Assembly (NCBI GenBank): GCA_038150265.1
Contig: JAYOTF010000055.1
Location: 1-14,508 of the forward strand
Reading direction: 5' to 3'
Origin: Deltaproteobacteria bacterium
Lineage (GTDB): Bacteria > SAR324 > NAC60-12
DNA length: 14,508 bases
Part shown: one piece after another, positions 1,405 through 14,506 of the stretch
Position numbering within the stretch: position 1 is the stretch's first letter
How the letters are laid out: each line of letters starts with the position of its first letter
The notes under the pieces: model-generated
Told to the model about the DNA's origin: nothing
What the model saw: only the letters and a program-made list of their open reading frames with translations
Database searches by the model: none
Position numbers and translations under genes: made by a program

Positions 1405-2220
1405 ATGAAGTACCGAGTGTGGGGGCTGATTGCCCTGAGCTGGCTGGTGGTAGGGTGCAGTGGCAGCGTGGTCCGGACACTGGCGCCGGAGGCGGTCAGT
1501 GAGACCCGCATCAATCAGGAATCCGCCAAGTCCTACAAGCAGGTCATTGCCGAGTCCAAGCTCTCGACGGATCAGCGTCGGGTCGCACTGGTGAAGCGGG
1601 TGGGCCAGCGCATTGCGAAGGCCTCCGGAGAGCCCTTTGACTGGGAGATTGAGCTGATTGAAAGTCCGGAGCTGAACGCGTGGTGCATGCCGGGGGGGAA
1701 GATTGCGGTCTACACGGGCATCCTGGATGTGCTGGAGACGGAAGCGGCGCTGGCTGCCGTGATGGGACACGAGGTGGCACATGCCACCCGACGGCATGGC
1801 ATGAAGGGGTACGCGAAGGCGATTGAGAACCAACTGGCCACTGCCGCGGTGGTGGGGGTGGCCGTGGTCGCGGCAGAGGCGTATTGTCAGAGCGAGCAGT
1901 GCAAGACCCTGGCAAAGGTCGGAGGCGCTGCTGGCGCACTGGGGTTGGCCTTCTTCCAGCGCAAGTACAGCCGAGACGATGAGACCGATGCCGACCGTTA
2001 CGGGCAGATCTACATGGCACGGGCCGGGTACGATCCGGCAGAAGCCAGCCGCGTCTGGGACCGCATGGCCAAGGCCACCGGTGGAGGCGGAGGGCCGGAG
2101 TTCATGTCCACGCACCCGAGCCATGAAAACCGGAAGAAGCGCCTCAGCGAGTGGCTTCCGGAAACGCGGGCGCTTTACCAGAAGGCGCCAAAGCAGTATG
2201 GCCTTGGCGAGAAGCTTTAG
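1405..2220 (+). CDS. M48 family zinc metallopeptidase, lipoprotein (LoiP/YggG/BepA-like)
   Basis: MKYR start, hydrophobic stretch and lipobox LVVG-C. Family motifs NAWCMPGGKIAVYTG, HEVAH (HExxH), YSRDDETDAD, AGYDP and FMSTHP. ATG at 1405 is preferred over the TTG at 1336. Confidence 0.92.
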   Translation: MKYRVWGLIALSWLVVGCSGSVVRTLAPEAVSETRINQESAKSYKQVIAESKLSTDQRRVALVKRVGQRIAKASGEPFDWEIELIESPELNAWCMPGGKIAVYTGILDVLETEAALAAVMGHEVAHATRRHGMKGYAKAIENQLATAAVVGVAVVAAEAYCQSEQCKTLAKVGGAAGALGLAFFQRKYSRDDETDADRYGQIYMARAGYDPAEASRVWDRMAKATGGGGGPEFMSTHPSHENRKKRLSEWLPETRALYQKAPKQYGLGEKL

Positions 2221-2699
2221 GGGCGTTTTCGGGTGAGCAGGAAAACCGGTTGGCCGTGGTGGCAGACCTCCGCATGTCGGGTCCACCCGAGCGGCTCGTA
2301 GTAAGAGGCCTGCCCTTCAGTCAAAAGGTACAGCTGCCGAAAGCCCTGCTCCCACGCAAAGGCTTCCAGCGCTCGGACCAGTTGCCGCCCCAGCCCCTGC
2401 TGGCGGAAGGGGGGCAGGACGTACAGGCTGGCCAACCAGGGGCCCAGGTGCTGATACTCCGGAGGGAAATCAGGAGGCAGCTCCTCTTCCAGCAGCGCAA
2501 TGCTGCCCCGTAGCTCCGCGCCCTCACAGGCCACAAGGGTCGTGGGCACCGTCCGGCGACAGGCGTGGTCCTGCACCTCGGCGACGGCCTCCTCCAGCGT
2601 CCAGAACGGCGCATAGAGCGCCCCCCACTCGGCATGATGGAGCCGCGCCAGTGGCTCCGCAAGGTGGGGGTGATCGGCGAGGAATTCCAGCGTGATCAA
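2217..2699 (-). CDS. GNAT family N-acetyltransferase
   Basis: PWLASLYVLPPFRQQGLGRQLV (acetyl-CoA motif A) and LYLLT...YYEPLGW. The TTG start overlaps the upstream stop (TTGA). Confidence 0.88.
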   Translation of the reverse strand: MITLEFLADHPHLAEPLARLHHAEWGALYAPFWTLEEAVAEVQDHACRRTVPTTLVACEGAELRGSIALLEEELPPDFPPEYQHLGPWLASLYVLPPFRQQGLGRQLVRALEAFAWEQGFRQLYLLTEGQASYYEPLGWTRHAEVCHHGQPVFLLTRKRP

Positions 2700-3040
2700 C
2701 CGTGATCCCGCTTCTTCCAGGCGCTGATGCGCAGCTCCCAGTCTTCCATCAATCCTGCCTCAATGCGGTAGTTGCGGCTGTCCACCACCACCGTTTGACC
2801 GTCTCCCGGCACCGGGTGGACGTCATCGAGGGCCCGTTGCAGCTTGGCAAAGCCCACCGTGGTGCACCACTCCAGGAGGCCGTGCATGATCCGGCGGTCC
2901 CGGAAGTGGTGGTCCTGCTTGCCCTGAAAGGGGTCAGGAAGGTGAAGGCTGGCAGGCAGGGAAACCTCTCCCCCCCAAATGGCAAGGGGAGGGGAGTCAA
3001 AGTGACGGATCCAGCCTCGTTCCAGAGTGACGGCGGTCAT
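2696..3040 (-). CDS. Hypothetical protein (114 aa, MTAVTLERGW...KKRDHG)
   Basis: Fills the gap exactly. Its ATG (3040) overlaps the phosphorylase stop (ATGA) and its TGA overlaps the GNAT TTG start, consistent with translational coupling. Confidence 0.7.
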   Translation of the reverse strand: MTAVTLERGWIRHFDSPPLAIWGGEVSLPASLHLPDPFQGKQDHHFRDRRIMHGLLEWCTTVGFAKLQRALDDVHPVPGDGQTVVVDSRNYRIEAGLMEDWELRISAWKKRDHG

Positions 3041-3807
3041 AATCCCATTACCGAGTGGGCACAGGAGCAGTGCTGTTGATGAAGGGGCTGCTGAAAGACG
3101 TCCAGGCAGAGCCGGGTGGCTCGGTCGCGACACTGCTCCAGTGCCGCCTGAATGTCTTCCAGGGTGATCGGAACTTCCTCCAGTCCGGAGGCCATGTTGA
3201 CAACCAGGCCAAGGGCGGCATAGCACAGCCCCAGCTCCTTGGCGAGCACGACCTCCGGGACATTGGTCATGCCCACCAGGTCGGCGCCCCACCCCCGGAA
3301 CATGCGGATCTCTGCGGGCGTCTCAAAGCGGGGGCCTTCGGTGCAGAGGTAAACCCCGGAGCCCGCAAGGGGGATCTCGAGCCGATCGGCAGCGGCGGTC
3401 AGTTGCCTCCGGAGCTCTGGACAGTAGGGCTCCTCCAGCCCAACGTGTCGGACCTGCCCATCAGCGCCCTCAAAGAACGTCCGGGCCCGCCCCTGTGTGA
3501 AGTCGAGGAAGTCGGCAGCGAGAACGAGGTCTCCCGGACGAAACGCCGGATTGAGCGAGCCGACGGCTGCTGTGGCCAACACGTGGGTGACGCCCAGCTG
3601 CTGGAGCGCCTTCAGGTTGGCCCGGTAGTTGATGCGGTGCGGAGGAACCGAGTGACCCTTTCCGTGCCGGGCCAGGAAAGCGACCTCCTCTCCGCCGAGT
3701 TCCACCACATCGACGGACACGTCTCCATACGGGGTGGCCACCTGCTCCACCCGAGCCGGTGTGCCGCTGCCGTAAACGCCGGTGCCCCCAATCATTGCCT
3801 TGTTCAT
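3037..3807 (-). CDS. mtnP: MTAP-family purine nucleoside phosphorylase, probably S-methyl-5'-thioinosine / 6-oxopurine specific
   Basis: MIGGTG, TPYG, FLARHGKGHSVPPHRINYRAN, AVGSL, EGPRFETPAEI, GADLVGMT..PE..LAKELGLCY, and a C-terminal CxC. An alternative start lies at 3819. Confidence 0.9.
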   Translation of the reverse strand: MNKAMIGGTGVYGSGTPARVEQVATPYGDVSVDVVELGGEEVAFLARHGKGHSVPPHRINYRANLKALQQLGVTHVLATAAVGSLNPAFRPGDLVLAADFLDFTQGRARTFFEGADGQVRHVGLEEPYCPELRRQLTAAADRLEIPLAGSGVYLCTEGPRFETPAEIRMFRGWGADLVGMTNVPEVVLAKELGLCYAALGLVVNMASGLEEVPITLEDIQAALEQCRDRATRLCLDVFQQPLHQQHCSCAHSVMGL

Positions 3808-3903
3808 CCGTCTGCCCATGCGAGGGGTTAAATGCTCATTAGCTTAGTCGGGGGCCGAGGAGGAACAAGCTGAAAGCCACCTGCAGGAGGTGTGAAAAAG
3901 CTC

Positions 3904-3936
3904 TTCCCATTTGAAGGCCAAGCTCCTAGACTATTT
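3904..3936 (+). promoter_or_regulatory. Candidate htpG promoter, sigma70-like and/or RpoH-like
   Basis: TTCCCA-N17-TAGACT (3904-3932) overlaps TTGAAG-N13-ACTATTT (3911-3936), which resembles heat-shock sigma promoters. No CIRCE element was found. Confidence 0.3.
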
Positions 3937-3996
3937 GGTTAATCTCACCAGAGAATTCACGCTGAAGCCTGATTCATCAATTACCCAATCAAGACC

Positions 3997-5877
3997 ATGA
4001 GTGAAGCAAAACAAGGAGCCGAAGTTCATCAGTACCAAGCCGAGATGCAGAAGCTGCTCGACATCCTCGTCCACTCCCTCTACACCGAGCGGGAGATCTT
4101 CCTGCGGGAGCTGATCTCCAACGCCTCGGATGCCCTGAGCAAGGTGCAGTTTGAGGCGCTGACGCAAGAGGGGTTGGTGAGCGGCGACCAGGAGCTGGAG
4201 GTCCGGCTCGCATTTGATGACACGGCCAACACCCTGGAGGTGATCGACAACGGCTGCGGCCTCACGAAGCAGGAGCTGATCGACAACCTCGGCACCATTG
4301 CCAGCTCCGGCACCCTCAAGTTCCTCAAGCAGGCTCAGGAAAGCCAGCAGTCGGTCGAGAACCTGATTGGCCAGTTCGGAGTGGGCTTCTACTCCGTCTT
4401 CATGGTGGCCGACCGGGTGGAGCTGGTGACCCGCTCCTGGAAGGAAGACGAAGCAGGCTGGATGTGGAGCTCCGATGGCTCCGGAAGCTACACCCTGACG
4501 CCAATGGACGTCTCGGAGCGCGGCACCCGCGTCAAGCTCTTCCTCAAGGAAGACGCGAAGGAGTTCTGTGCCGAATACCGGATGGAGTCGATTGTGAAGC
4601 GTTACTCCAACTACGTCCCCTTCCCCGTGAAGATCAAGGACCGGGTGCTCAACCAGGTCAAGGCCCTGTGGACGCAGTCGCGCTCCAGTGTGGAGGAAGC
4701 GGAGTATGAGGAGTTCTACAAGCACATTGCTCACGAGATGGAAGGGCCGCTGCACACCCTGCACTTCTCGATTGATGCCCCGCTGCAGTTCCACGCCCTG
4801 CTCTTCTTCCCCAAGAAGGTCTCCAACGAGATCCTCTACGCCCGGGAGAGTCGCGGCATTGCGCTCTATGCGCAAAAGGTGCTCATTCAGCCCGACAACA
4901 AGAACCTGCTGCCGCCGTACCTGCGCTTTGTGCAGGGGGTGGTGGACTCCGAGGACCTGCCTCTGAACGTCTCCCGGGAGTCGGTGCAGCAGAATGCCCT
5001 CATTGAGCGCATCAAGAAGAGCCTCACCTCCCGCGTGCTCAAGGAGCTGCAAACCCTGGCCGATCAGCACAGCGACACCTACCTCTCCCTCTGGAAGGCC
5101 TACGGCAGCCTCCTCAAGGAAGGGGCGGCCCAGGACTTTGGGAACCGCGAGAAGCTGATGGACCTGCTCCGCTTCAACTCCACCATCTGTGAAGACGCGG
5201 AGCCCACGGTGACGCTGAAGGACTACGTGTCCCGGATGCGGGACGGGCAGAAGGAAATTTACTACGCCCTCGGCAGCACCCGGGAATCGCTGCTCTATCA
5301 CCCGAACCTGGAGTACTTCAAGAAGCAGGGGCTCGAGGTCCTCTTCCTCCTCGACCAGATTGACGAATTCGTCATGACCGACCTGCGCGAGTACGACGGG
5401 AAGCCCTTCAAGAGCATCTCGCAGGCCGACATTGAGAACATGGAAGACGTCCGGGAAAAGCCCGAGACCGAGCTTTCGGACGAAGAGAAGAGCGACCTGC
5501 TCAGCTTCTTCAAGGAGCAGCTGGGCGAGCGGGTGCAGGACGTGGTTGAGTCCAAGCGCCTGGTGGGCAGCCCCTGCTCCCTGATTGACTCGCGAGACGG
5601 CATGAGCGCGCAGATGGAGCGCATGATGAAGATGATGAACCAGGAGGTCGAGACGCAGAAGCGGACCCTCGAGCTGAACCTGGGGCATCCGGTCATGCAG
5701 AACCTCTCCACGCTCCTGCAGAAGCAAAAGAGCCACGAGTTCCTCCCGGAAGCCGTGGAACAGCTCTACCTGAACGCGTTGCTGGTGGAGGGCTTGCTGG
5801 AGAATCCGGTGGAGATGCTGCCGCGCATCAATCGCCTGCTCGCCGATGCCTCAGCCTTCCAGCTCAAGGACGCCTGA
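3997..5877 (+). CDS. htpG: Molecular chaperone HtpG (Hsp90)
   Basis: YQAEM..LL..LVHSLY..REIFLRELISNASDAL, DNGCG, NLGTIASSGT, IGQFGVGFYSVFMVAD, YLRFVQGVVDSEDLPLNVSRE; 626 aa. Confidence 0.98.
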   Translation: MSEAKQGAEVHQYQAEMQKLLDILVHSLYTEREIFLRELISNASDALSKVQFEALTQEGLVSGDQELEVRLAFDDTANTLEVIDNGCGLTKQELIDNLGTIASSGTLKFLKQAQESQQSVENLIGQFGVGFYSVFMVADRVELVTRSWKEDEAGWMWSSDGSGSYTLTPMDVSERGTRVKLFLKEDAKEFCAEYRMESIVKRYSNYVPFPVKIKDRVLNQVKALWTQSRSSVEEAEYEEFYKHIAHEMEGPLHTLHFSIDAPLQFHALLFFPKKVSNEILYARESRGIALYAQKVLIQPDNKNLLPPYLRFVQGVVDSEDLPLNVSRESVQQNALIERIKKSLTSRVLKELQTLADQHSDTYLSLWKAYGSLLKEGAAQDFGNREKLMDLLRFNSTICEDAEPTVTLKDYVSRMRDGQKEIYYALGSTRESLLYHPNLEYFKKQGLEVLFLLDQIDEFVMTDLREYDGKPFKSISQADIENMEDVREKPETELSDEEKSDLLSFFKEQLGERVQDVVESKRLVGSPCSLIDSRDGMSAQMERMMKMMNQEVETQKRTLELNLGHPVMQNLSTLLQKQKSHEFLPEAVEQLYLNALLVEGLLENPVEMLPRINRLLADASAFQLKDA

Positions 5878-5902
5878 GCGGCACCCGCCGAGCGTGAGGA
5901 GG

Positions 5903-6379
5903 TCAGTTCAGCAGGTAACGCTGCGAGCGGTCCTCCTCCAGTTCCAGAAGCCGGGTTTCGTAGTCCCGGAGGGCCTCATCAATCTGGTCGGAGTAGTCCC
6001 GGAGTTCCTGCAGACGCTGCTGAATCACCTTGAGCAGCTCCTCATGCTGATTCGAGTGGGAAGGGTGGTTCCGGACCCGGCTCAGGAGCCCGTCACATTG
6101 CTGCGTGACTCCATCGAGCTGTTCCCGTAGGGTAAAGAGGTTGAAGGTGTTGCGTTCTTCCGGAGAAAGCGTCAGGTCCGGGTTGGGCTGATCCCGGGCG
6201 GTTTTGAGGTACTCCCCATTGGCCTCCATGAATTTGGAAATGCGCGCCAGCACCTCCTGGTACTGCTCCGCCAGGTGGTCACATTCCCGCCGGTACCGTT
6301 TCAGGTCCCGAAGGGTCGCAAAGGGCAGGAATTGGTGAAACAGGCGGGTGAGGGACCTGAAGACAGATTTCATGAGCAT
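5903..6379 (-). CDS. Hypothetical alpha-helical / coiled-coil protein (158 aa)
   Basis: ORF with a GGGGG ribosome-binding site before the ATG, heptad-like L/I spacing and high E/Q/R content. It has its own near-consensus promoter. Confidence 0.72.
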   Translation of the reverse strand: MLMKSVFRSLTRLFHQFLPFATLRDLKRYRRECDHLAEQYQEVLARISKFMEANGEYLKTARDQPNPDLTLSPEERNTFNLFTLREQLDGVTQQCDGLLSRVRNHPSHSNQHEELLKVIQQRLQELRDYSDQIDEALRDYETRLLELEEDRSQRYLLN

Positions 6380-6408
6380 ACCCCCGATTAATCACGAAAT
6401 TTTCCTTA

Positions 6409-6437
6409 AAATTAGAGAAGTGTTGGCGCATTGTCAA
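6409..6437 (-). promoter_or_regulatory. Sigma70 promoter for the 6379 hypothetical gene
   Basis: Minus strand reads TTGACA (6437-6432), 17 nt, TAATTT (6414-6409), in an AT-rich divergent intergenic region about 30 nt upstream of the ATG. Confidence 0.65.
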
Positions 6438-6444
6438 CGCGCCA
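6424..6444. promoter_or_regulatory. Palindromic candidate operator overlapping the -35 box
   Basis: TGGCGC-A-TTG-T-CAA-C-GCGCCA; 9 of 10 arm positions are complementary. Confidence 0.4.
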
Positions 6445-6471
6445 CTTGTTCCTATTTGTAGAGCATCTCCT

Positions 6472-7375: not shown

Positions 7376-7921
7376 TTGAAAATTACACTGGCAGGAGCCC
7401 CAGGCTCCGGAAAATCCACCCTCCGTCAGCTACTGGCGGATCACTACGGCCTTGAGGTCAAGGCGGTCGGAGACTTCATGCGGCAGGTCGCTCAGCGGTA
7501 TGGGTACACCGACATCACGGCCTTCCTCGTCGAGTACGTGTCCAGCCATCCGGAGATCGACCATGAGGTGGATGAGGAGCAACGGGCGTACGGAGCCGCG
7601 CACCAGCACTTTGTCCTCGACTCGCACATCGGGTTCCACTTTGTGCCCGACTCCCTCAAGATCCGGCTCGAGTGTGACGTGGAGGAAGCCGCCCGGCGCA
7701 TCCTGGCGGCCAAGCGGACCACGGAGTCGGCGGCCAGCCTCGAGCAAGCGGTGCAGGCCAACCGCCAGCGGGAGGAAACGATGCACCGCAACTTCCTCCA
7801 CCTCTATGGCGTGGACATTCACGATGACGCTCACTTTGACATGGTGGTCGATACCACCACGCTCCGGCCCGAGGAGGTGTTTGCGGAACTGTGCCGACGC
7901 ATTGACGCCCACTTTGCCTGA
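7376..7921 (+). CDS. cmk: Cytidylate kinase, type 2 (archaeal-type) NMP kinase
   Basis: TTG start after an AGGGGG RBS. KITLAGAPGSGKST P-loop, GDFMR..A, HPEIDHEVDEEQ, LKIRL, and LYGVDIHD...FDMVVDTT. The length of about 181 aa is typical of type 2 Cmk. Confidence 0.8.
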   Translation: MKITLAGAPGSGKSTLRQLLADHYGLEVKAVGDFMRQVAQRYGYTDITAFLVEYVSSHPEIDHEVDEEQRAYGAAHQHFVLDSHIGFHFVPDSLKIRLECDVEEAARRILAAKRTTESAASLEQAVQANRQREETMHRNFLHLYGVDIHDDAHFDMVVDTTTLRPEEVFAELCRRIDAHFA

Positions 7922-7971: not shown

Positions 7972-8048
7972 GCGCTCGTAGCTCAGTTGGATAGAGCAGC
8001 TGCCTTCTAAGCAGCGGGTCGATGGTTCGAATCCATCCGGGCGCGCCA
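7972..8048 (+). tRNA. tRNA-Arg (anticodon TCT)
   Basis: Acceptor stem GCGCTCG/CGGGCGC, D-arm GCTC-AGTTGGATA-GAGC, anticodon arm GCTGC-CT-TCT-AA-GCAGC, T-arm GATGG-TTCGAAT-CCATC, and encoded CCA; 77 nt. Confidence 0.97.
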
Positions 8049-8076: not shown

Positions 8077-8460
8077 TTGGAAATTCAGGGAAAGCTGATT
8101 GAGATTTTTGAAACCCAGCAGGTGAGTGATCGCTTCCGGAAACGGGAGTTTGTGCTGGAGTATGCCACCAACCCTGAGTATCCGGAATTCCTCAAGTTTG
8201 AGATGGTTCAGGACCGCTGCGAGCAACTCGACGGGTTTCAGGTCAATGAAACCGTCCAGGTGCGCTTCGACCTCAAGGGCCGGCGCTGGACCGACCGCCA
8301 GGGGCAGGTGAAGTACTTCAACTCGCTACAGGCGTGGCAGCTGGCCCGCTTGCAGGAAGACGCCCCTGCTGCAGGCTCCGGAGCCTCTGAGCCTCCCAGC
8401 ACGCCGAAGGACATGCCCCTTCCGGAACCGCCTCCCCCCGGAGACGACCTCCCCTTCTGA
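8077..8460 (+). CDS. DUF3127 family protein (SSB-like OB fold with an acidic DDLPF tail)
   Basis: TTG start after GGAG. MEIQGKLIEIFETQQVSDRFRKREFVL...YPE...FE..QD...V.V.F.L.GR.W...YFNSLQAW, then a Pro-rich linker and terminal GDDLPF. Confidence 0.88.
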   Translation: MEIQGKLIEIFETQQVSDRFRKREFVLEYATNPEYPEFLKFEMVQDRCEQLDGFQVNETVQVRFDLKGRRWTDRQGQVKYFNSLQAWQLARLQEDAPAAGSGASEPPSTPKDMPLPEPPPPGDDLPF

Positions 8461-8465: not shown

Positions 8466-9026
8466 ATGCATCGGCACCCCCTGCTGCAGCACCTGCACAC
8501 CTACCGCCTCCAGCATCCAGACGAGCAGGCGGTGGTGTCGCTGTTCCAGACCTTTGTTTCCGCGCATCCGGATTGCTTCCAACGCCGCCTTGAGGAGGGG
8601 CACATCACCGCCTCGGCGTGGGTGCTGAGCCCTGACCTCCAGGAGGTCCTGCTCACCCATCATCGCAAGCTCAACATCTGGGTCCAGCTCGGAGGGCACG
8701 TGGAGGGCAACCCACAGGTGCAGGAAGAGGCCCTCCGGGAGGCACAGGAGGAGTCGGGTATTTCGGACCTGGAGCTGCTGGACGAGGCGATCTGGGATCT
8801 GGACCGGCACCGCATTCCGGCACGCAAAGGGGAGCCTGAACACTGGCACTACGACGTCCGTTTTCTCTTGCAGGCGCGGCACCGTGACTTTCAGGTGAGC
8901 GCCGAGTCTCACGACCTCGCGTGGGTCCCCCTTTCCGAGCTGGAAACGTACTCGCAGGAAGCCTCGTTGCTCCGGATGCGAGACAAGACCTTCAGGCGCT
9001 TCGGCGCATCCCAGCCAGGGCGTTGA
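8466..9026 (+). CDS. Nudix hydrolase
   Basis: GHITASAWV, LLTHHRKL..W.QLGGH, Nudix box GGHVEG...EALREAQEESGI, and HYDVRF. Confidence 0.92.
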   Translation: MHRHPLLQHLHTYRLQHPDEQAVVSLFQTFVSAHPDCFQRRLEEGHITASAWVLSPDLQEVLLTHHRKLNIWVQLGGHVEGNPQVQEEALREAQEESGISDLELLDEAIWDLDRHRIPARKGEPEHWHYDVRFLLQARHRDFQVSAESHDLAWVPLSELETYSQEASLLRMRDKTFRRFGASQPGR

Positions 9027-9879
9027 GCACCAGCGCGCCCAGCACAATCCCCCCGCCCCAGTAAGTGCTTTCCGGGGGGATTTCTCCGTGAAACCACCAC
9101 ACCCACAGCGGCCCCAGCAGGGTCTCCAGCAGCATGATCAGCCCCACCTCTGGAGCCGTCAGGTAGCGGGGCCCCAGCGTGATGAGCGCAAAGGACAGCG
9201 GCTGCACCAGCAGCCCCATCAGGGCCAGGGTCCCGTATTCCTCCGGACGGATGGCCCACGGATCGACAAACCACACCAGCCCCAGCGCAACCAGCAGCCC
9301 CCCGACGCCGATAGCGGGAACCAGGTTGACGGCCTTGGCCCGGCGGATGAGGACAAACTCAATGGCGCCGGCCAGCGCACACCCGAGCGCTGCCAGGTTG
9401 CCCACCCAGTTTCCGGTTCCCAGCCCATCCCAGAAGATGAGGCCCATCCCGATCATGGCCGCTGCAATGGTCAGCCAGGTCCGGAGGGCAATCTGCTCCT
9501 TGAGGACCAGCAGGCTCAGCAGCGCCGCAAGCAGTGGGATCGCGCTGAGGATGATGAGGGCGTTGGCCACCACCGTGTACTTGATGGCGGTGACAAACAT
9601 GGTGGTGCCAAAGGCAAAGGAGCACGCGACCGCAAAGCCGGTGGGCCCAATGCTCCGGAGGAGCGGAAAGAGGCGGCCCCGGTACTGAATGAGGAAGAAG
9701 CTGAGGATGACCACCCCGATCATCAGCCCCCGCCAGAAGGTGACCAGCAGGGCCGGACCCGTGATGGCACGGATGAGGGCGCTGTCCGGAGAGAGGATGA
9801 TGACGCCCGAGAGGGTAATCGCCAGGCCATACAGGTGGGTGCGCTCCGGGGCGAGAGCCGGAGCCTCGGCTGGCGTCAT
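8992..9879 (-). CDS. DMT superfamily (EamA) transporter
   Basis: About 10 hydrophobic segments in two EamA halves; LSPDS, PLLAALLS..VLKE, GPRYLTAPEVGLIMLLETLLGPLWVW...GE.P. Confidence 0.92.
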   Translation of the reverse strand: MTPAEAPALAPERTHLYGLAITLSGVIILSPDSALIRAITGPALLVTFWRGLMIGVVILSFFLIQYRGRLFPLLRSIGPTGFAVACSFAFGTTMFVTAIKYTVVANALIILSAIPLLAALLSLLVLKEQIALRTWLTIAAAMIGMGLIFWDGLGTGNWVGNLAALGCALAGAIEFVLIRRAKAVNLVPAIGVGGLLVALGLVWFVDPWAIRPEEYGTLALMGLLVQPLSFALITLGPRYLTAPEVGLIMLLETLLGPLWVWWFHGEIPPESTYWGGGIVLGALVLNALAGMRRSA

Positions 9880-10640
9880 TGCGGGGCCCGTTCCAGCTGC
9901 CGGATCCGCAGCTGAGCGGGGGTGGTGAAGGGGCTGTCGGGGTACTGCTCCAGGAAGAAACGCAGGTCCTCCGGATCCTCTGAATCCTTGACCAGGTTCC
10001 AGGTCTCTTCCTCGGCCGCCCGTGCCTGTTCCCGCAGGGCCTTCTCCCGGGCGCGGGCCACGGTGACGTCCTCGCGGATCACGCCCTTGTCATAGACGGG
10101 CTGCTCCTCTTCATCCATGGTGCCCAGCAGCTGGTCTCGGGTGACCAGGATGCGCCAGTTCTTGCGGGATTCAAACGAGGAGGGGTAGGCGTAGGGGCCG
10201 ACCTGAAAGACCACCTCCTGGGCCTCGGCGAGGGTCGTGAAGTCGTCAATCGGCAGCGGAAGGTAGAAGGCCTCCCCCCAGGAACCCGTGGTGCCATCGG
10301 CATTTTGAGCGAGGGCATTGAAGTCATCCTCGTATTCACGGTCTGGAAAGCGGAAGGCGCGGCCATCGGCCTGAATCTCAAACGCCTTGCCCTTGAGGAA
10401 CACGAAGCGGTCCAGGGACTTGAGGCGGAACTGGATGTTCTCATCGCAGATGGTTTTGCCCGGACAGTCCTGGTAGGCCTCCAGCGTCACCTCCTTGGGA
10501 ATGTCGGGGCTGCTCAGGCGGATCGGCTGCGGGGCAAAGCGGGTGCGGTCATCCTTCTCAAAGTATTCCAGCGTCACCGGGCGGGTGCAGGCAGAGAGCA
10601 GCAACAGCACAACAAGCAGGAGTCCAGCGGGTGTCTTCAT
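9876..10640 (-). CDS. Hypothetical lipoprotein with a C-terminal helical 'W..S.D...FL..YP.S.F...A..RI' module
   Basis: MKTPAGLLLVVLLLLSA-C lipobox (start 10640 preferred over 10676). The stop overlaps the DMT start (ATGA). Confidence 0.75.
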   Translation of the reverse strand: MKTPAGLLLVVLLLLSACTRPVTLEYFEKDDRTRFAPQPIRLSSPDIPKEVTLEAYQDCPGKTICDENIQFRLKSLDRFVFLKGKAFEIQADGRAFRFPDREYEDDFNALAQNADGTTGSWGEAFYLPLPIDDFTTLAEAQEVVFQVGPYAYPSSFESRKNWRILVTRDQLLGTMDEEEQPVYDKGVIREDVTVARAREKALREQARAAEEETWNLVKDSEDPEDLRFFLEQYPDSPFTTPAQLRIRQLERAPQ

Positions 10641-10829
10641 GGGTCGAGTTCGGGAGTAAGGGGTCGACAGGATCACCTCACTAGCCTAGTGGACTGGTGA
10701 CACCCAGCAAGCCGGAAAGCATGGGGGCGCTCCCTGGGCGCATTTTGATCTTGTGGAACGAGTCCGGGATGGAATGCTATAAAGGATCCTCAAACAGGAA
10801 CGAAACCTATTGAAAGACGGGAGAGTTGC

Positions 10830-12659
10830 ATGAAACGGTTTTTGATCAGTCTGACAGCCGGGGCCCTGATGGCCCCAGCCTGGGTGTCGGCCGAGCCGCA
10901 GCACGGCCTTGCCATGAACGGGACCCCGAAGTATGCCGCAGGGTTCACGCACTTTGAGTACGTGAATCCGGACGCGCCCAAGGGCGGAGAGATTCGCCTG
11001 CACTCCCTGGGAGGCTTTGACAGCTTCAATGGCTTCATTGCCAAGGGGGAGCCCGCTGACGGCCTGGGTCTGATCTATGACACCCTGATGGTCAGCTCCG
11101 ACGACGAGGCGTTCACGGAGTACGGCTTGGTGGCCGATTCGATTGAGACGCCAGAGGACCGCAGCTGGGTGATCTTCCACCTCAATCCGGAGGCACGCTT
11201 TCACGATGGCACCCTGATCACCGTGGACGACGTCATGTTTACCTTCAACACGCTTGTGGAGCAGGGGGCGCCGTTTTACAAGTCGTATTACGGCGAGGTC
11301 GACCGGATGGAAGACCTGGGGGACCGACGCATCAAGTTCCACTTCAAGGAAGGCGTGGTGAACCGTGAGCTGCCGCTCATCCTGGGGCAGCTTCCGGTGC
11401 TGCCGAAGCACTGGTGGGCCGACCGGGACTTCAGCAAGGCTGGGCTGGAGCCCCCGCTGGGAAGCGGTCCCTACCGCATCAAGGACTTTGAGCCCGGGAA
11501 GTCGGTGACCTATGAGCGTGTTCCCGACTACTGGGCGCAGAACCTTCCGGTGGCCAGGGGCAGCTCCAACTTTGATGAGGTGCGCTACGACTACTTCCGC
11601 GATGACACCGTGGCCCTGGAAGCCTTCAAGGCGGGCGAGTACGACTTCCGGCAGGAGAACACCTCGAAGCTCTGGGGGACGATGTACACCGGGGAGCGCT
11701 TTGACAAGGAGCAGATCATCAAGGCCGAGATCAGCCACGAGCTGCCCCGGGGCATGCAGGGGTTTGGCTACAACCTGCGCCGCGAGCTGTTTCAGGATCG
11801 TCGGGTCCGGGAAGCACTGGGGTACGCCTTTGACTTTGAGTGGAGCAACAAGAACCTCTTTTACGGCCAGTACCGCCGCAGCAACAGCTTCTTCACCAAC
11901 TCCGAGCTGGCCTCACGGGGCAAGCCGACTCCTGAGGAGCTGGCCATCCTGGAGCCCTTCCGGAAGGACCTGCCTGAGGAGGTCTTCACCGAAGCCTTCA
12001 CGGTGCCACAGACCGATGGCTCCGGAAACCTGCGGACGCAGCTCCGGCAGGCGTCTCGGCTCCTCAACGAAGCCGGATGGACCGTTCAGGACGGCAAGCG
12101 GGTGAATGCCGCAGGGCAGCCGTTCGAGTTTGAGATCCTGCTGGTGTCTCCCGCCTTTGAGCGCATCGTCCTCCCCTTTGCCAAGAACCTGGAGCGCCTC
12201 GGCATCACCGCCAACGTCCGGACCGTGGACACGTCTCAGTACATTGAGCGGCTCCGGAAGTTTGACTTTGACATGATCGTGGTGACGTTGGGGCAGTCGC
12301 TCTCTCCAGGGAATGAGCAGCATGAGTTCTGGAGCTGTGAGGCGGCTCAGGCGGAAGGCAGCCGGAACTACATGGGCATCTGCAATCCGGCGATTGATGA
12401 GCTGATCAAGCTGGTGATTGCGGCTCCGAATCGCGAGGAGCTGATCACCCGGACGCGGGCGCTGGACCGGGCGTTGCTGTGGAACCACTTTGTCATTCCG
12501 CAGTGGCACATCAACTACTTCCGGCTGGGGTACTGGAACAAGTTTTCCCACCCGGAGGTGACGCCCAAGTATGGCCTGGGCCTCTTCACCTGGTGGGTGG
12601 ATCCTGCCAAGGAAGCCCAGCTCAAGGACTCCGGAGTGGGCTTAAAGTCCCTCCCGTGA
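10830..12659 (+). CDS. yejA: ABC transporter family 5 extracellular solute-binding protein, YejA-like (peptide / microcin C)
   Basis: Sec signal peptide after a GGGAG RBS. HGLAM.G.PKY..GF.HF.YVNPDAPKGG, FDSFN.FI.KG, EARFHDG, PPLGSGPY, DYWA..LPV..G..NFD, SPGNEQ..FW, and RALDR.L.W. Confidence 0.9.
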   Translation: MKRFLISLTAGALMAPAWVSAEPQHGLAMNGTPKYAAGFTHFEYVNPDAPKGGEIRLHSLGGFDSFNGFIAKGEPADGLGLIYDTLMVSSDDEAFTEYGLVADSIETPEDRSWVIFHLNPEARFHDGTLITVDDVMFTFNTLVEQGAPFYKSYYGEVDRMEDLGDRRIKFHFKEGVVNRELPLILGQLPVLPKHWWADRDFSKAGLEPPLGSGPYRIKDFEPGKSVTYERVPDYWAQNLPVARGSSNFDEVRYDYFRDDTVALEAFKAGEYDFRQENTSKLWGTMYTGERFDKEQIIKAEISHELPRGMQGFGYNLRRELFQDRRVREALGYAFDFEWSNKNLFYGQYRRSNSFFTNSELASRGKPTPEELAILEPFRKDLPEEVFTEAFTVPQTDGSGNLRTQLRQASRLLNEAGWTVQDGKRVNAAGQPFEFEILLVSPAFERIVLPFAKNLERLGITANVRTVDTSQYIERLRKFDFDMIVVTLGQSLSPGNEQHEFWSCEAAQAEGSRNYMGICNPAIDELIKLVIAAPNREELITRTRALDRALLWNHFVIPQWHINYFRLGYWNKFSHPEVTPKYGLGLFTWWVDPAKEAQLKDSGVGLKSLP

Positions 12660-13799
12660 CCCTTCCGAGGGAGCCGGAAGCTGCACGTGCGCACGGAGCG
12701 CTTCCGGAACCTTCAGGATCACCTCTTCTCCCAACTCGGCAAAGTATCCCTCCTGCGTGGTCGCCAGCTCAAGCGTCAGGGTCTCGCCCTGACGGCTCAC
12801 CTGCCACGTCAACCGATGCTGGGCATCCGGAAGAGCAAACCCACGGGCTTCAAGAAACAGCTCCAGGGTGCCTTCCGGTCCAGCCTCAACCTTCCAGCGC
12901 CCTGCTTCAATGGGGCTGTTGACCTCAATCTGGGTGATGCCTTCCGGAAGGGGGGCGTCTCGCCGGTAGTCGGCATAAAAGGGCCGACGGGTCAGGTAGA
13001 GCACCAGCATCACCCCCATGAAAGCGGCCAGGCCCCAGCCGACGCGCTTCTTGGTTTGTTCCGTGAGCGGACGCAGCCGGTGTTCGGAGACCGGTGGCTG
13101 CAGGATCCAGTCGTAGAGGATCACCATCACCAGCCAGAGGCTCCCCCACGCCCAAAGCGCATCGGTCAGGAAGTGCCCCCCCTGCACAATGCGGGCAGCA
13201 CTCATCAAGCCTCCGTAGAGCATGCCTCCCACCAGCATCCCGATGGCCAGCTTGCGGGACCGGTTCCAGAAGACGATGCCGGTGCTGAAGACAAAGCCCA
13301 TGGTGCAGTGTCCGCAGGGGAAGGAGCGGCCCTTGCCGGCGATCCCCAGCGTCAGAGGCGGGCGGTACTGCCAGGGGCCTCCGAACTCAACCACCTCGCG
13401 AGGGCGGGGGCGGCCCGTGTGTTCCTTGAGGAGGGTGTTGACGAGGATGCCCGCCCCAAGGATGGGCACCAGGGCATAGACGAGCAGGTACGGACGCCAC
13501 CGTGCCAAGCGGGGATCCCGGAGGCCCCGGTACCAGAAGAAGAGCACCGCGATCATCACCACAAAGGCCGGGACGGTGCCCCAGCGATAGAGCCAGCGCC
13601 ATGGCTCATCATTGGCCAGGAACCACCCGGAAGGGGCTTCGTAGGCGAGCGCTGCCACCCGGAGGTCGGCTTGCTGCGACTCCAGCCAGAAGGTCAGGCT
13701 GACCAGCCCGGTCAGGAGGAGGAGGATCCGGATCAGCCCTCGTTTGCGGAGGGCCTGGGCCTGGTGCTGAAGCTCGTGATCAGACGGCGGTGCAGTCAT
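12642..13799 (-). CDS. PAP2 family integral membrane phosphatase with an extra C-terminal TM helix and soluble beta-rich domain
   Basis: Motif 1 KEHTGRPRP, motif 2 SFPCGH, motif 3 RIVQGGHFLTD; multiple TM helices. Confidence 0.88.
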   Translation of the reverse strand: MTAPPSDHELQHQAQALRKRGLIRILLLLTGLVSLTFWLESQQADLRVAALAYEAPSGWFLANDEPWRWLYRWGTVPAFVVMIAVLFFWYRGLRDPRLARWRPYLLVYALVPILGAGILVNTLLKEHTGRPRPREVVEFGGPWQYRPPLTLGIAGKGRSFPCGHCTMGFVFSTGIVFWNRSRKLAIGMLVGGMLYGGLMSAARIVQGGHFLTDALWAWGSLWLVMVILYDWILQPPVSEHRLRPLTEQTKKRVGWGLAAFMGVMLVLYLTRRPFYADYRRDAPLPEGITQIEVNSPIEAGRWKVEAGPEGTLELFLEARGFALPDAQHRLTWQVSRQGETLTLELATTQEGYFAELGEEVILKVPEALRAHVQLPAPSEGSREGL

Positions 13800-14506
13800 G
13801 AGGAAGGAGGCAGTGGCTCAAAGAAGGCGTGGAGCATCTTCAGGTGAAGCTCCCGGGCCTGGGTGATGGCCCAGGCAGAGAGGAGCCCCCCAAGAGGAGT
13901 CAGCCCCAGCAGCAGCGGCGGATCCTGAAAGGAGATTGCGCGGATGCCCAGAAAGATGCCCATCACGCCGAGGACAAAGAGGAACCCCCACCCGGCAAAA
14001 CGCAGCTCCCAGTAGGCCGGAAGCGGAGGGTAGGTCCCGTTCAGGGCCACGTAGAGGCGCTGCTGGGGGGTCTTGAGGAGGTGCAGGTGCACCCAGTGAA
14101 GCATCGCCCAGACGGGCAGAATCATCCCGAGGCTGTCGCTGATCCAGTGGTGAGCGGTCATGGCTCGGCCCACTCCCATCGCCACTGCCAGCAGGAGGAC
14201 GCACAGCCCGAGTCCTGCAGCCACCGCTTTCCTTCCCCACCCGGGCTTCGGGCTCCACCAGAGCAGGTAGCAGGGCATCAGCAGGGTCAAGACGGCTGCC
14301 GTGTGCCCGCTGGGGAAGCTCCCATGGTAAACGCCTTCGGTGATGAAGTGAGGGCCAAAGGAAAGCCAGGGGGTGTAGAGCCACTCGCCACTCCAGACTT
14401 CATGGGGCCGGGCGCGCCCAATCACCCACTTGAGGCTGTGGACGAGTCCCAGGGCCCCTGCCAGAGCAGCCAGAACAATGAAGCCGAGCTCCGGACGGTA
14501 GCGCCG
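13796..14506 (-). CDS. PAP2 family integral membrane phosphatase; 5' end lies outside the window
   Basis: The frame is open to the window edge (RRYRPELGFIVLAALAGALGLVHSLKWVIGRARP). Motifs KWVIGRARP, SFPSGH and RAMTAHHWISD. The stop overlaps the next ATG (ATGA). Confidence 0.87.
   Translation of the reverse strand, partial: RRYRPELGFIVLAALAGALGLVHSLKWVIGRARPHEVWSGEWLYTPWLSFGPHFITEGVYHGSFPSGHTAAVLTLLMPCYLLWWSPKPGWGRKAVAAGLGLCVLLLAVAMGVGRAMTAHHWISDSLGMILPVWAMLHWVHLHLLKTPQQRLYVALNGTYPPLPAYWELRFAGWGFLFVLGVMGIFLGIRAISFQDPPLLLGLTPLGGLLSAWAITQARELHLKMLHAFFEPLPPSS

Follow-up and report, generated by a model that had tools for sequence, protein, structure and literature searches.

Highly iterated palindromes have been described in cyanobacteria, where HIP1 (GCGATCGC) and alternate palindromes of this kind occur (Elhai 2015, PMC4390886; Xu, Lawrence and Durand 2018, PMC5861425; Rodriguez-Cruz et al. 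2026, PMC13756078). According to the available parts of these papers, HIP1 is recognized by orphan methylases and has been linked to transformation (PMC4390886, PMC13756078), methylation-coupled biased repair is Elhai's model for it (PMC4390886), and it shows periodicity at 18-94 kb (Xu, Lawrence and Durand 2018, PMC5861425). The same excerpts of Elhai 2015 (PMC4390886) and Xu 2018 (PMC5861425) do not mention TCCGGA. Measured against what these excerpts describe, TCCGGA in the SAR324 genome studied here resembles HIP1 in being a short GC-rich palindrome that is hyper-abundant genome-wide both in and between genes, beyond codon usage and at a similar density (~one per 350 bp), in being confined to some lineages of a phylum, and in that selection apparently acts on abundance and distribution rather than on single instances. 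Unlike HIP1 as portrayed there, TCCGGA has six letters instead of eight, occurs in SAR324 rather than cyanobacteria, has no established cognate orphan methyltransferase, and combines a period of 10.5 bp, as opposed to 18-94 kb, with an exclusion zone below 30 bp.

Other systems also bear on the comparison. In the Dam/SeqA system of gamma-proteobacteria, SeqA binds paired hemimethylated GATC on the same helix face; like GATC, TCCGGA is a short palindrome for which adjacent copies count only in a fixed helical register, and this system offers a model for phasing by a dimeric reader. The uptake words DUS (Neisseria) and USS (Pasteurellaceae) are spread by molecular drive and are longer and not palindromic, and we know of no exclusion zone or helical phasing in them; TCCGGA is likewise over-represented, evenly spread, squeezed into permissive coding contexts and able to shift dipeptide usage, but it is short, palindromic and phased. 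In E. coli, Dcm/Vsr very-short-patch repair raises CCWGG, a parallel in which repair bias is able to enrich a methylated palindrome.

The window, that is, the whole stretch of DNA analyzed (14,508 nt), belongs to a fragmented MAG (G000; 97.8% complete), the genes of which were called with a simple in-house caller. It holds 35 TCCGGA copies, and every coordinate reported in the earlier note was verified; the expectation of only ~5 copies given there agrees with the mean of 5.45 in dinucleotide-preserving shuffles (sd, 2.49; maximum, 16), of which 0/200 reached 35. The one-off variants TCCGGG/CCCGGA are common as well, as that note had remarked (31 versus 15.9 expected; 31 reached in 0/200 shuffles). 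All TCCGGA sites are listed here with strand (given as "."), the codon phase of the word in its gene and the state in the relative compared, G002.

1472..1477 (.), M48 peptidase gene, xTC-CGG-Axx; TCCGGA in G002 too
1624..1629 (.), M48 peptidase gene, TCC-GGA (Ser-Gly); TCTGGA in G002
1665..1670 (.), M48 peptidase gene, xxT-CCG-GAx; common to G002
2157..2162 (.), M48 peptidase gene, xxT-CCG-GAx; TCCTGA in G002
2458..2463 (.), GNAT acetyltransferase gene (minus strand), xxT-CCG-GAx; no site in G002
3184..3189 (.), PNP/UDP phosphorylase gene (minus strand), TCC-GGA; no site in G002
3408..3413 (.), PNP/UDP phosphorylase gene (minus strand), xTC-CGG-Axx; no site in G002
4480..4485 (.), htpG, its single site, TCC-GGA; common to G002
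6070..6075 (.), 158-aa ORF with no assigned function (minus strand), xTC-CGG-Axx; TCTGAA in G002
6159..6164 (.), same 158-aa ORF, xxT-CCG-GAx; common to G002
7406..7411 (.), cytidylate-kinase-like gene, TCC-GGA; common to G002
7549..7554 (.), cytidylate-kinase-like gene, xxT-CCG-GAx; CCCTGA in G002
8135..8140 (.), DUF3127 gene, xTC-CGG-Axx; common to G002
8181..8186 (.), DUF3127 gene, xxT-CCG-GAx; common to G002
8377..8382 (.), DUF3127 gene, TCC-GGA; no site in G002
8421..8426 (.), DUF3127 gene, xxT-CCG-GAx; CCCCGA in G002
8567..8572 (.), NUDIX gene, xxT-CCG-GAx; common to G002
8971..8976 (.), NUDIX gene, xTC-CGG-Axx; TGCGGA in G002
9242..9247 (.), EamA transporter gene (minus strand), xxT-CCG-GAx; no site in G002
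9480..9485 (.), EamA transporter gene, xTC-CGG-Axx; TCCGTA in G002
9654..9659 (.), EamA transporter gene, xTC-CGG-Axx; CCCGGA in G002
9785..9790 (.), EamA transporter gene, xxT-CCG-GAx; TCGGGA in G002
9970..9975 (.), 266-aa ORF without Pfam family (minus strand), xxT-CCG-GAx; no site in G002
10967..10972 (.), SBP_bac_5 solute-binding gene, xxT-CCG-GAx; CCCGGA in G002
11186..11191 (.), SBP_bac_5 gene, xxT-CCG-GAx; CCCGCA in G002
11959..11964 (.), SBP_bac_5 gene, xTC-CGG-Axx; TCCGCA in G002
12021..12026 (.), SBP_bac_5 gene, TCC-GGA; TCCGGG in G002
12217..12222 (.), SBP_bac_5 gene, xTC-CGG-Axx; common to G002
12253..12258 (.), SBP_bac_5 gene, xTC-CGG-Axx; common to G002
12630..12635 (.), SBP_bac_5 gene, TCC-GGA; no site in G002
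12703..12708 (.), PAP2 gene (minus strand), xxT-CCG-GAx; TCCGGC in G002
12826..12831 (.), PAP2 gene, xxT-CCG-GAx; TCAGGA in G002
12943..12948 (.), PAP2 gene, xxT-CCG-GAx; TCCGGC in G002
13727..13732 (.), PAP2 gene, xTC-CGG-Axx; common to G002
14490..14495 (.), outside called genes; common to G002

The last site may lie in a 5' extension of the minus-strand ORF 13796-14506, which runs off the window, and contigs of the public runs X1 and X20 carry CCCGGA at the 8181 site (8181 T>C). As the earlier note had observed, the three M48 sites (1472, 1624 and 1665) are out of frame with one another, occupying three codon frames, and the low-GC start of the window is free of sites (0 in the first 1.3 kb; GC, 49%). 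The counts given for the supposedly site-poor htpG and yicC (1 and 0) are likewise correct, but avoidance in htpG is not borne out: this gene has few sites because it offers few compatible contexts (1 of 4 occupied; binomial P, 0.45), while 0/8 are occupied in yicC (P, 0.014; not significant among 14 genes).

Genome-wide analysis revealed that TCCGGA is the most over-represented hexamer of the 3.39-Mb genome (n = 9,711, ~1 per 350 bp; zero-order O/E, 8.69), spread over 3-kb windows with a mean of 8.68 and a variance of 9.89. The excess held under each of the null models that had been proposed for it, including Markov models (O/E of 7.57, 3.95, 2.39 and 1.22 at orders 1 to 4) and synonymous-codon shuffling, which left 2,050 genic sites (sd, 34; 10 shuffles) versus 8,604 observed (4.2x); under codon permutation 1,240 were expected (6.9x). 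All three frames contribute, with 2,020 sites versus 509 expected for TCC-GGA, 2,362 versus 718 for xTC-CGG-Axx and 4,222 versus 822 for xxT-CCG-GAx, and strict intergenic spacers carry 252 versus 34 expected (7.4x). About 41% of the amino-acid contexts compatible with TCCGGA carry the word, namely, 2,020/5,964 Ser-Gly dipeptides, 4,222/8,636 X-Pro-Asp/Glu contexts and 2,362/6,213 [FLIV]-Arg-X contexts, compared with an expected occupancy of 8-11% for these classes, and 0/1,134 genes fell below binomial P < 0.001. TCCGGA is as dense between genes as at permitted coding places, and its excess stems from a bias that acts at the level of DNA rather than through proteins or codon usage.

It could be argued that a repeat family, or biases in composition, codon usage or lower-order k-mers, produced the word incidentally, given the order-4 O/E of just 1.22 and the frequent use of CGG for Arg (38%) and of GGA for Gly (26%). 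We regard this as highly improbable; composition, codon usage and k-mers were rejected by the shuffle, permutation, frame and spacer nulls. The motif itself also inflates its half-words TCCGG/CCGGA, which brings the order-4 value close to 1, and in the NCCGGN table T..A flanks exceed independence (9,711 TCCGGA versus ~7,960 by hand arithmetic on the margins). Moreover, TCC-GGA occurs 2,020 times in the Ser-Gly codon-pair table and every other pair at most 438 times, the sequences between site pairs were unique in the examples inspected, and TCCGGA is also the top hexamer in three relatives.

When the amino-acid sequence is kept constant (G000; 8,602 of 20,800 contexts occupied), two TCCGGA copies ~11-29 bp apart are strongly disfavored: observed/expected joint occupancy was 0.72 at 6-10 bp, 0.39 at 11-19 bp, 0.66 at 20-29 bp, 0.95 at 30-44 bp and ~1.0 further out. 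Beyond ~30 bp, joint occupancy oscillates with the 10.5-bp helical turn (residual power of 29.7 at 10.5 bp, phase ~0; 3-bp power, 0.1), a periodicity of 10.45-10.5 bp that persists to ~300-500 bp, is present in each genome half (0/200 400-kb subsamples below 0.7), has an identical phase across all three mod-3 classes and was reached by 0/60 jitter nulls. Contexts alone, regardless of occupancy, gave a power of 0.21 at 10.45 bp, and pairs with a noncoding member (n = 1,599) gave 11.7. The signal is word specific (25.8 for TCCGGA versus ≤8.3 among the 40 commonest hexamers, where power exceeded 4.7 only in CCGGA-containing words and in CCGGGC [7.9 at 11.9 bp]). In relatives, joint occupancy at 11-19 bp was 0.37 in G013, 0.28 in G002 and 0.51 in G001. 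Periodicity in G013 had a power of 11.0 (reached by 0/300 jitter nulls), that in G002 was 2.56 versus a 5th percentile of 5.0 in equal-sized G000 subsamples, and phasing in G001 was not significant (matched by 30/300 jitter nulls); pairs lie at whole turns in G000 and G002 and at half turns in G013, where both data halves agree. This synonymous-level exclusion zone, together with the 10.5-bp oscillation of TCCGGA pairs, is what is new here.

Such spacing fits best the second option of the earlier note, a DNA-binding protein, because, in synonymous spelling, neighboring sites interfere with one another and keep a helical phase. Alternatively, TCCGGA might be bendable or stiff, its spacing tuning curvature or supercoiling with no dedicated reader, since the period equals the helical repeat of B-DNA out to ~300-500 bp, the phase flip between lineages comes more easily to a curvature optimum than to a conserved protein contact, and no reader was found. 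We consider this improbable: the exact hexamer is required, phasing being limited to the full word (CCGG without T..A flanks, 1.7; 7/9 one-off variant pairs, ≤1.6, with two transition neighbors at 5.9 and 3.3), site flanks showed no periodic AT content, and the sharp exclusion below 30 bp suggests a footprint more than elastic behavior. Against a protein reader, in turn, a phase differing by lineage is not predicted by one conserved reader of fixed geometry, and the searches of the genome for SeqA and a histone fold yielded no candidate; operator-like TCCGGA arrays that could mark a reader's own gene were not found either. The weak periodicity of G002, the lack of periodic AT content in the flanks, and the modest conservation and ordinary loss rate of single sites described below also count against a protein reader.

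TCCGGA is a lineage-restricted, highly iterated palindrome of one SAR324 branch. In the class survey, 9/88 genomes have TCCGGA at least 7-fold rarer than the composition-matched AGGCCT (for instance, 15-31 versus ~1,400-1,700 in G083, G084 and G087), which recalls restriction-site avoidance of the same word, with the opposite sign in the window's lineage. Between species, 42.5% of sites are conserved versus 33% over all hexamers (rank 190/845), and differences are spread over all six positions. In amino-acid-conserved contexts (n = 3,248), P(site|site) equaled 0.55, compared with 0.21 for P(site|non-site). The resulting memory, 0.34, exceeds the median of 0.17 found among 185 ordinary codon-pair states, where TCC-GGA takes rank 29; single sites turn over fast, yet more slowly than ordinary codon pairs. 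Hand two-state arithmetic gives model memories of ~0.07 under mutation bias and ~0.4 under fixation bias, and TCCGGA follows the pattern of a fixation bias (selection or a mimic of it), not that of a mutational hotspot. In a small polarized sample, site loss was ordinary (17/54 versus 32.8% for any hexamer) and one-off precursors became TCCGGA in 10/136 cases versus 1.8% for an average specific change, which looks more like creation bias than protection. Proteins are affected too: an amino-acid difference accompanies 449/1,036 G000-only and 262/645 G002-only sites, and Ser-Gly, Pro-Glu and Pro-Asp exceed composition 1.40x, 1.64x and 1.35x, respectively.

The reading favored by the earlier note was that a TCCGGA/CCGG methyltransferase marks the word while biased repair converts near-matches, so that it accumulates as a by-product. 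The raised gain from precursors would suit this, as would the 9/88 avoiding genomes if a TCCGGA-specific restriction activity circulates in the class, and HIP1 is recognized by orphan methylases in the parts of the papers available (PMC4390886, PMC13756078). The genome encodes two amino-methyltransferases, one retron-adjacent with a full orthologue in only 1/30 relatives and one (L002:248-1387; motif IV SPPY) conserved across the order and apparently orphan, with no restriction-enzyme partner recognized in its single complete neighbor (TerB-like). This conserved candidate fails to track enrichment: it occurs in 26/31 relatives, including G003 and G014, which lack enrichment, and G023, which avoids the word, and was not found in the enriched but incomplete MAGs G018, G047 and G052. 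The region between its motifs I and IV is kept, making a specificity change unlikely, and its weak matches include RNA methyltransferase families, so it may not act on DNA. Unlike in the Dcm/Vsr and Dam/SeqA systems, C5 methyltransferase, Vsr and MutH were not found in the 97.8%-complete genome, nor was a type I/IIG N6 methyltransferase (PF02384), SeqA is likewise missing from the hits, and PF02086 gave a signal only over a stretch of 47 residues in the conserved methyltransferase. Moreover, species differences at all six positions give no single repair-prone position, site-by-site drive predicts neither the 11-29-bp exclusion nor helical phasing, and pure creation bias predicts turnover faster than that of ordinary codon pairs, the opposite of what is seen. 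We therefore judge methylation with biased repair unlikely; of the earlier note's overall reading, the HIP1-like palindrome (hyper-abundant, frame independent, coding and noncoding, lineage restricted) stands and the methyltransferase part finds no backing in the gene content.

An uptake or recombination signal of the DUS/USS kind, spread by molecular drive and accumulating where proteins tolerate it, a role recently proposed for HIP1 too, appears quite unlikely in its turn. The even spread, saturated permissive contexts, dipeptide excess and many lineage-only sites with an amino-acid difference resemble uptake sequences, turnover is fixation-like, and ComEC is present in G000. ComEC is, however, present in 35/35 high-quality genomes of the class, at any TCCGGA density, and so does not discriminate density, a 6-bp palindrome is far shorter than known uptake signals, redundancy would be expected at the scale of uptake fragments and not at 11-29 bp, and helical phasing is not predicted. 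A link of HIP1 to transformation, in the available parts of two papers (PMC4390886, PMC13756078), also speaks for this signal.

On balance, we somewhat favor the view that TCCGGA is a HIP-like palindrome read by a sequence-specific protein, with the coverage and geometry of sites under selection. The word would be bound by an abundant sequence-specific protein or complex, probably a dimer, with a putative footprint of ~two to three helical turns, so that nothing would be gained from a further site within it. Neighboring copies may influence one another across the helix face, and selection would act on the coverage and geometry of ~10^4 sites while individual sites turn over quickly. In this uncultured SAR324 bacterium, roughly 40% of the positions where the protein sequence allows TCCGGA carry it, with neighbors at set distances, and these distances suggest that its chromosome is read by a putative protein through this word.

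The palindrome TCCGGA occurs 35 times in the window, and the position of every copy listed in an earlier note was reproduced exactly; dinucleotide-preserving shuffles gave a mean of 5.45 copies (standard deviation, 2.49; maximum, 16), and none of 200 reached 35. The one-off words TCCGGG and CCCGGA, described there as common, were also in excess (31 copies versus 15.9 expected; 0/200 shuffles reached 31). According to our own gene calls and Pfam, which agreed with the gene labels M48, HtpG, and YicC assigned from the sequence alone, 34 of the 35 sites lie inside genes, in the frames TCC-GGA (7 sites), xTC-CGG-Axx (11), and xxT-CCG-GAx (16), and the three sites remarked on in the M48 peptidase gene do fall in three different frames. 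The sparsity ascribed to the conserved htpG and yicC genes held as a count, with one of four permissive contexts (codon or amino acid settings able to carry TCCGGA without a change of protein) occupied in htpG (P = 0.45) and none of eight in yicC (P = 0.014); since both genes contain few such contexts, it mostly reflects a lack of opportunity. The low-GC start of the window is free of sites, as had been claimed, with none of the eight contexts occupied in the first 1.3 kb (49% GC). Two features of the window were recorded in addition to the protein-coding genes named so far:

71 to 1141, plus strand: open reading frame (ORF) of an NHL-repeat protein, within positions 1 to 1305 (49% GC), missed by the codon-based gene caller

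7972 to 8048, plus strand: tRNA-Arg (anticodon TCT), between the cytidylate-kinase-like and DUF3127 genes

At the syntenic position in G002, the sister species of the SAR324 genome that contains the window (G000), nothing corresponds to the NHL-repeat region, and the G002 alignment begins at position 1306; the region was probably acquired recently and has yet to assume the TCCGGA signature. Twelve of the 35 window sites are common to G000 and G002. Among 20 public sequencing runs examined as assembled contigs, long pieces from three studies matched the window at about 99% identity, with the first 1.3 kb covered in fragments, and in two runs a T-to-C variant at 8181 turns the site there into CCCGGA. 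Runs X1 to X5 and X20 each contained at least 54% of the sampled words. A depth spike (137 to 1,633) and many loose contig ends on the window are due to the tRNA-Arg gene at 7972 to 8048.

The excess extends throughout G000, a fragmented metagenome-assembled genome (MAG) of 3.39 Mb in 87 contigs (largest, 214 kb; 61.2% GC; completeness, 97.78%). TCCGGA heads the list of over-represented hexamers with 9,711 sites, one per 350 bp (zero-order observed/expected ratio, 8.69), followed by its own overlaps CCGGAA/TTCCGG (4.88), with CTGCAG (3.16) as the next palindrome; the other 15 words of the form NCCGGN number 745 to 4,124 each. Under the Markov models that the earlier note had proposed as a check, the ratio remained at 7.57, 3.95, and 2.39 for orders 1, 2, and 3 and fell to 1.22 at order 4 because the half-words TCCGG and CCGGA are inflated too. 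Codon usage, the other explanation raised there, likewise failed to account for the signal: 8,604 genic sites were counted (2,625 genes, called here and throughout with our own crude caller), compared with 2,050 (standard deviation, 34) in 10 within-gene synonymous shuffles and 1,240 under a codon permutation null, and all three frames were enriched. Moreover, 1,121 strict intergenic spacers (118 kb; 55% GC) held 252 sites versus 34 expected. Thus, the codon-shuffle and spacer results indicate that the excess is a property of the DNA. Among other words of G000, CTAG is the rarest tetramer (574 copies, 0.05 of the zero-order expectation), and TGATCA is over-represented 3.1-fold, as it is 4.1-fold in a sample of G001, a genome of the same genus.

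Permissive contexts approach saturation to a degree that codon usage, which predicts 8 to 11% occupancy, does not anticipate. TCC-GGA spells 2,020 (34%) of the 5,964 Ser-Gly dipeptides of G000, versus at most 438 for any other codon pair, and TCCGGA is present in 4,222 of 8,636 X-Pro-Asp/Glu contexts (49%) and 2,362 of 6,213 [FLIV]-Arg-X contexts (38%). The proteome itself is shifted, with Ser-Gly, Pro-Glu, and Pro-Asp at 1.40, 1.64, and 1.35 times the amino acid composition, compared with 1.04, 0.82, and 1.26 times for the reversed Gly-Ser, Glu-Pro, and Asp-Pro; an amino acid difference coincides with the site difference at 449 of 1,036 G000-only and 262 of 645 G002-only sites. Occupancy is uniform, none of 1,134 genes with at least eight contexts falling below a binomial P of <0.001, and no correlation with GC3 or codon score was observed among G000 genes. 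In 3-kb windows the mean was 8.68 sites with a variance of 9.89, and 10 of 2,106 windows held one site or none. That site-poor islands might be foreign DNA was considered and rejected, as the two windows without any site consist of ABC-permease genes, which offer few permissive contexts. Density dips near start codons (1.6 to 1.7 per kb versus 2.7 to 3.0 elsewhere), and no operator-like arrays or clusters were found in G000, windows with four sites numbering 60 versus 83.6 under a Poisson expectation and those with five sites 1 versus 9.0.

The sites are also spaced according to the turn of the DNA helix. The histogram of site distances in G000 peaked at 10.45 bp with a normalized power of 25.8 (3-bp coding signal, 37.8), and none of 60 null sets generated by jittering sites by ±10 bp reached this value; a gap-shuffle null was discarded as invalid, since it keeps the nearest-neighbor gaps that carry the signal and therefore returned powers equal to the observed one. 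Near 10.45 bp, a power of 5 to 8 was attained, among the 40 most frequent hexamers, only by those that contain CCGGA, the others remaining at or below 4.7 except CCGGGC, whose power of 7.9 lies at 11.9 bp, and seven other palindromes did not exceed 3.9. The periodicity extends to about 300 to 500 bp, and each half of the genome shows it at a phase of about 0 (powers, 25.8 and 10.1), as did all of 200 random 400-kb subsamples (median power, 5.75; none below 0.7). Its phase is the same across the three mod-3 classes (shift, 0.14 to 0.31 bp), and pairs with a noncoding member (n = 1,599) gave a strong signal (power, 11.7). In the examples printed, the sequences separating phased pairs are unique. 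Phasing requires the full hexamer (CCGG without the T..A flanks, 1.7), and among one-off variants a signal is confined to the transition neighbors, with 5.9 for CCCGGA/TCCGGG, in phase, and 3.3 for TCTGGA/TCCAGA, which is what nascent or decayed sites would give.

Spacing was then separated from protein sequence by scoring the joint TCCGGA spelling of pairs among 20,800 permissive contexts in G000. Context positions alone lack such periodicity (power, 0.21), while joint occupancy with the protein fixed oscillates at 10.5 bp with a power of 29.7 and a phase of about 0, its 3-bp component being 0.1. The same analysis uncovered an exclusion zone, with observed/expected joint occupancy of 0.72 at 6 to 10 bp, 0.39 at 11 to 19 bp, 0.66 at 20 to 29 bp, 0.95 at 30 to 44 bp, and 1.0 beyond. 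Pairs 9 bp apart (TCCGGAnnnTCCGGA) number 45 in G000 versus about 28 expected per distance, and distances of 11 to 17 bp are depleted (3 to 12 each); this tight doublet seems to be tolerated or favored inside the exclusion zone.

The earlier note had called for repetition in relatives, and TCCGGA was again the top hexamer in samples of 770 to 800 kb, less than a quarter of each genome, from G013 (another genus), G002, and G001 (observed/expected, 7.7, 6.8, and 7.8), with 33 to 35% of contexts occupied. Joint occupancy at 11 to 19 bp was 0.37 in G013 (11 pairs versus 30 expected), 0.28 in G002 (10 versus 36), and 0.51 in G001 (19 versus 37), so that the exclusion zone is conserved in all four genomes. 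Helical periodicity was significant in G013 (power, 11.9 at 10.5 bp; 0/300 jitter nulls), weaker in G002 (4/300), and not significant in G001 (30/300). Its phase differs between lineages. At distances of 20 to 124 bp, relative density in G000 was 1.16 to 1.30 at phase 0 versus 0.77 at the half turn, and that in G002 was 1.19 versus 0.71; G013 favors half turns (1.54 versus 0.61 to 0.66), with both independent halves of the data agreeing, and G001 is depleted at whole turns (0.45). Pair distances accordingly peak near 27, 37, 48, 58, and 67 bp in G013 versus 31, 41.5, 52, and 62.5 bp in G000.

Individual sites turn over quickly. An alignment of G000 and G002 (391 kb, 81% identity) contained 474 shared, 640 G000-only, and 392 G002-only sites, a conservation of 42.5% compared with an all-hexamer value of 33% (rank, 190 of 845), with differences at all six positions. 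Across 3,248 contexts with conserved amino acids (725 kb), the probability of a site was 0.55 given a site and 0.21 given a nonsite in the other genome, a memory of 0.34; for 185 ordinary codon-pair states the median memory was 0.17 (interquartile range, 0.12 to 0.24), and TCC-GGA ranked 29th. Both conservation and memory thus lie above the average without being extreme. Two explanations of the excess diverge here. Two-state arithmetic of our own leads us to infer that a bias acting only through faster creation of sites would leave a memory near 0.07 and a bias in fixation one near 0.4, and the value obtained favors the latter. A small sample polarized with G001 (73 kb aligned three ways, with turnover too fast for parsimony) showed 17 of 54 ancestral sites lost to one-off words versus 32.8% for any hexamer, and 10 of 136 precursors converted versus 1.8% per specific change, that is, a raised gain. 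On loss, this sample speaks against the fixation reading; given its size and the unreliability of parsimony at such turnover, it does not deserve much weight. Presence patterns in G000, G002, and G001, in this order, were 111 (27 sites), 110 (64), 101 (34), 011 (27), 100 (66), 010 (42), and 001 (93). Polarized gain and loss rates per branch were discarded, as a strict-ancestor rule reverses the counts to 11 gains versus 27 losses because it favors conserved positions.

Among 88 class genomes, 17 carried at least 1,000 TCCGGA sites per Mb (genome sizes rounded), all of them in the family of the window: 3/3 in genus g1, 3/3 in g12, 10/18 in g11, and 1/3 in g4. Density within g11 ranged from about 120 to 2,100 per Mb, and all nine genomes of g2 were at background. 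HtpG has relatives at 95% and 84% identity, which come from uncultured MAGs, and the closest homologues of a conserved gene bear the name SAR324 cluster bacterium. Nine class genomes (G083, G084, G086, G087, G068, G023, G081, G085, and G067) had at least 7-fold fewer TCCGGA than composition-matched AGGCCT sites (11 to 267 versus 143 to 1,882; for example, 15, 25, and 31 versus 1,435 to 1,728). Judged from these word counts, such a near-purge suggests TCCGGA-specific restriction in sister lineages.

The earlier note had proposed a methyltransferase with biased repair, a DNA-binding protein, or an uptake or recombination signal as the origin of the excess. A negative search in G000 has to be read against a completeness of 97.8% and does not establish absence; in this sense neither C5 cytosine methyltransferases (PF00145) and Vsr (PF03852) nor PF02384 methyltransferases, SeqA (PF03925) and MutH (PF02976), or the histone fold (PF00808) gave any match. 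Two amino-methyltransferases were found, in loci L001 (G000, contig C45, positions 1404 to 5096) and L002, with these ORFs in locus coordinates:

L001, 35 to 1444: retron-type reverse transcriptase (RT) (PADLOC RT_XIII, 234 bits; NCBIfam retron St85 RT, 200 bits, below the cut-off)

L001, 1441 to 2217: type II-like beta-class amino-methyltransferase with a TSPPY motif, overlapping the end of the RT

L001, 2224 to 3159: ORF without a family

L001, 3185 to 3691: ORF without a family

L002, 248 to 1387: amino-methyltransferase with motif I DPFMGGGT, motif IV ITSPPYPG, and a charged N-terminal tail of variable length

The L001 enzyme was rejected as the writer, since a full orthologue occurs in only 1 of 30 relatives (G001, at 71% identity), while G002 has a fragment and G013 lacks it; its locus is possibly a defense island with an unusual RT-methyltransferase pairing. 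The search for an orphan methyltransferase yielded one conserved candidate, the L002 enzyme, present in 26 of 31 family and order genomes; genomes without enrichment and genomes that avoid TCCGGA are among these, and its occurrence does not follow enrichment. Within g11 it was found in 12 of 18 genomes, the misses including three enriched genomes and the three non-enriched ones (51 to 57% complete). Conservation extends to the stretch that separates its motifs I and IV. Proteins of solved structure nearest to it match short stretches only, and DNA may not be its substrate. Family members (P0001, P0002, P0003, P0008, P0020, and P0027) share an Arg/Lys/Asp/Glu-rich tail throughout SAR324, about 90 residues long in distant members and about 230 to 250 in the closest relatives of the G000 protein; because motif IV is altered to ITRPPYPG in P0003 and ITAPPAPG in P0027, some members may be noncatalytic.

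The pattern differs from Dcm/Vsr-type enrichment, whose C5 methyltransferase and Vsr were not found in G000, and from the Dam/SeqA/MutH system, of which SeqA and MutH were not found there, while sharing with Dam/SeqA a dependence on the helical register of neighboring sites, a resemblance in working rather than membership. Nucleosome-like phasing by histones is likewise dissimilar, given that no histone-fold protein was found in G000 and that flank composition is not periodic (AT content power at 9.5 to 11.5 bp, ≤0.2). With a DNA uptake sequence, competence machinery would be expected to accompany the word; the competence gene ComEC occurs in 35 of 35 high-quality class genomes whatever their TCCGGA density, so it is uninformative as a correlate and does not go with density as an uptake system would have it. 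Neither uptake drives nor drives in which repair favors sites one by one predict the spacing rules. The analysis shows a fixation-like bias at the DNA level, interference between neighbors closer than 30 bp, and coupling in helical register beyond, all within synonymous spelling. A sequence-specific, probably dimeric protein or complex that reads TCCGGA and covers two to three helical turns would produce such a pattern: a second site inside the footprint would bring no benefit, its occupancy would sink towards the neutral 8 to 11%, and neighboring complexes would interact in a register differing between lineages. By our own arithmetic, this footprint predicts a joint-occupancy ratio of about 0.2 versus the observed 0.28 to 0.51. 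TCCGGA methylation may coexist with such a reader, by analogy with GATC, where methylation coexists with the reader SeqA.

The nearest known parallels are the highly iterated palindromes of cyanobacteria, which to our knowledge have gone unexplained for some thirty years. The HIP1-like character suggested from the window alone was borne out by abundance, independence of codon usage, occurrence in all frames and in noncoding DNA, and presence in some relatives and absence from others; both palindromes are also confined to certain lineages and share selection on sites as an ensemble. SAR324 differs from HIP1 proper in the word (TCCGGA, not GCGATCGC), in not being cyanobacterial, and in having no established cognate methyltransferase. 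The scale of periodicity differs as well, at 10.5 bp versus the 18 to 94 kb given for HIP1 in the accessible part of its source (PMC5861425), where we found no report of a sub-30-bp exclusion zone or a 10.5-bp register with the protein fixed. Supplements aside, none of the papers listed in literature searches, judged in part by title, describes TCCGGA over-representation in bacterial genomes or deals with SAR324 methylomes, and none was returned on TCCGGA methylation in metagenomes. The present work contributes the scoring of spacing with the protein fixed, the sub-30-bp exclusion zone, the lineage-dependent phase, estimates of site turnover, and the observation that sister lineages avoid the word.

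SAR324 TCCGGA is thus a six-letter counterpart of the highly iterated palindromes in an unrelated, ecologically widespread, and uncultured phylum. Its spacing rules give a concrete, testable prediction of footprint and cooperative geometry, and natural contrasts are available for finding the responsible gene, since density varies within a single genus from about 120 to about 2,100 sites per Mb, and sister lineages have purged TCCGGA. The case also illustrates how strongly a DNA-level signal can prevail over the choice of codons and affect even the proteins, which matters for codon-usage models, the detection of horizontal transfer, and the binning of SAR324 genomes. Tentatively, and with somewhat less than an even chance in our judgment, this branch of SAR324 may possess a new kind of bacterial chromatin, in which an abundant sequence-specific protein would sit on about 10^4 TCCGGA sites, each excluding neighbors within about 30 bp and interacting across the helix with the one that follows. 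Selection on such a lattice would set the spelling of about 40% of permissive codon contexts and shift dipeptides, and its register would have flipped from half turn to whole turn between sister lineages, which would mean that the reader and the genome-wide pattern of sites co-evolve.
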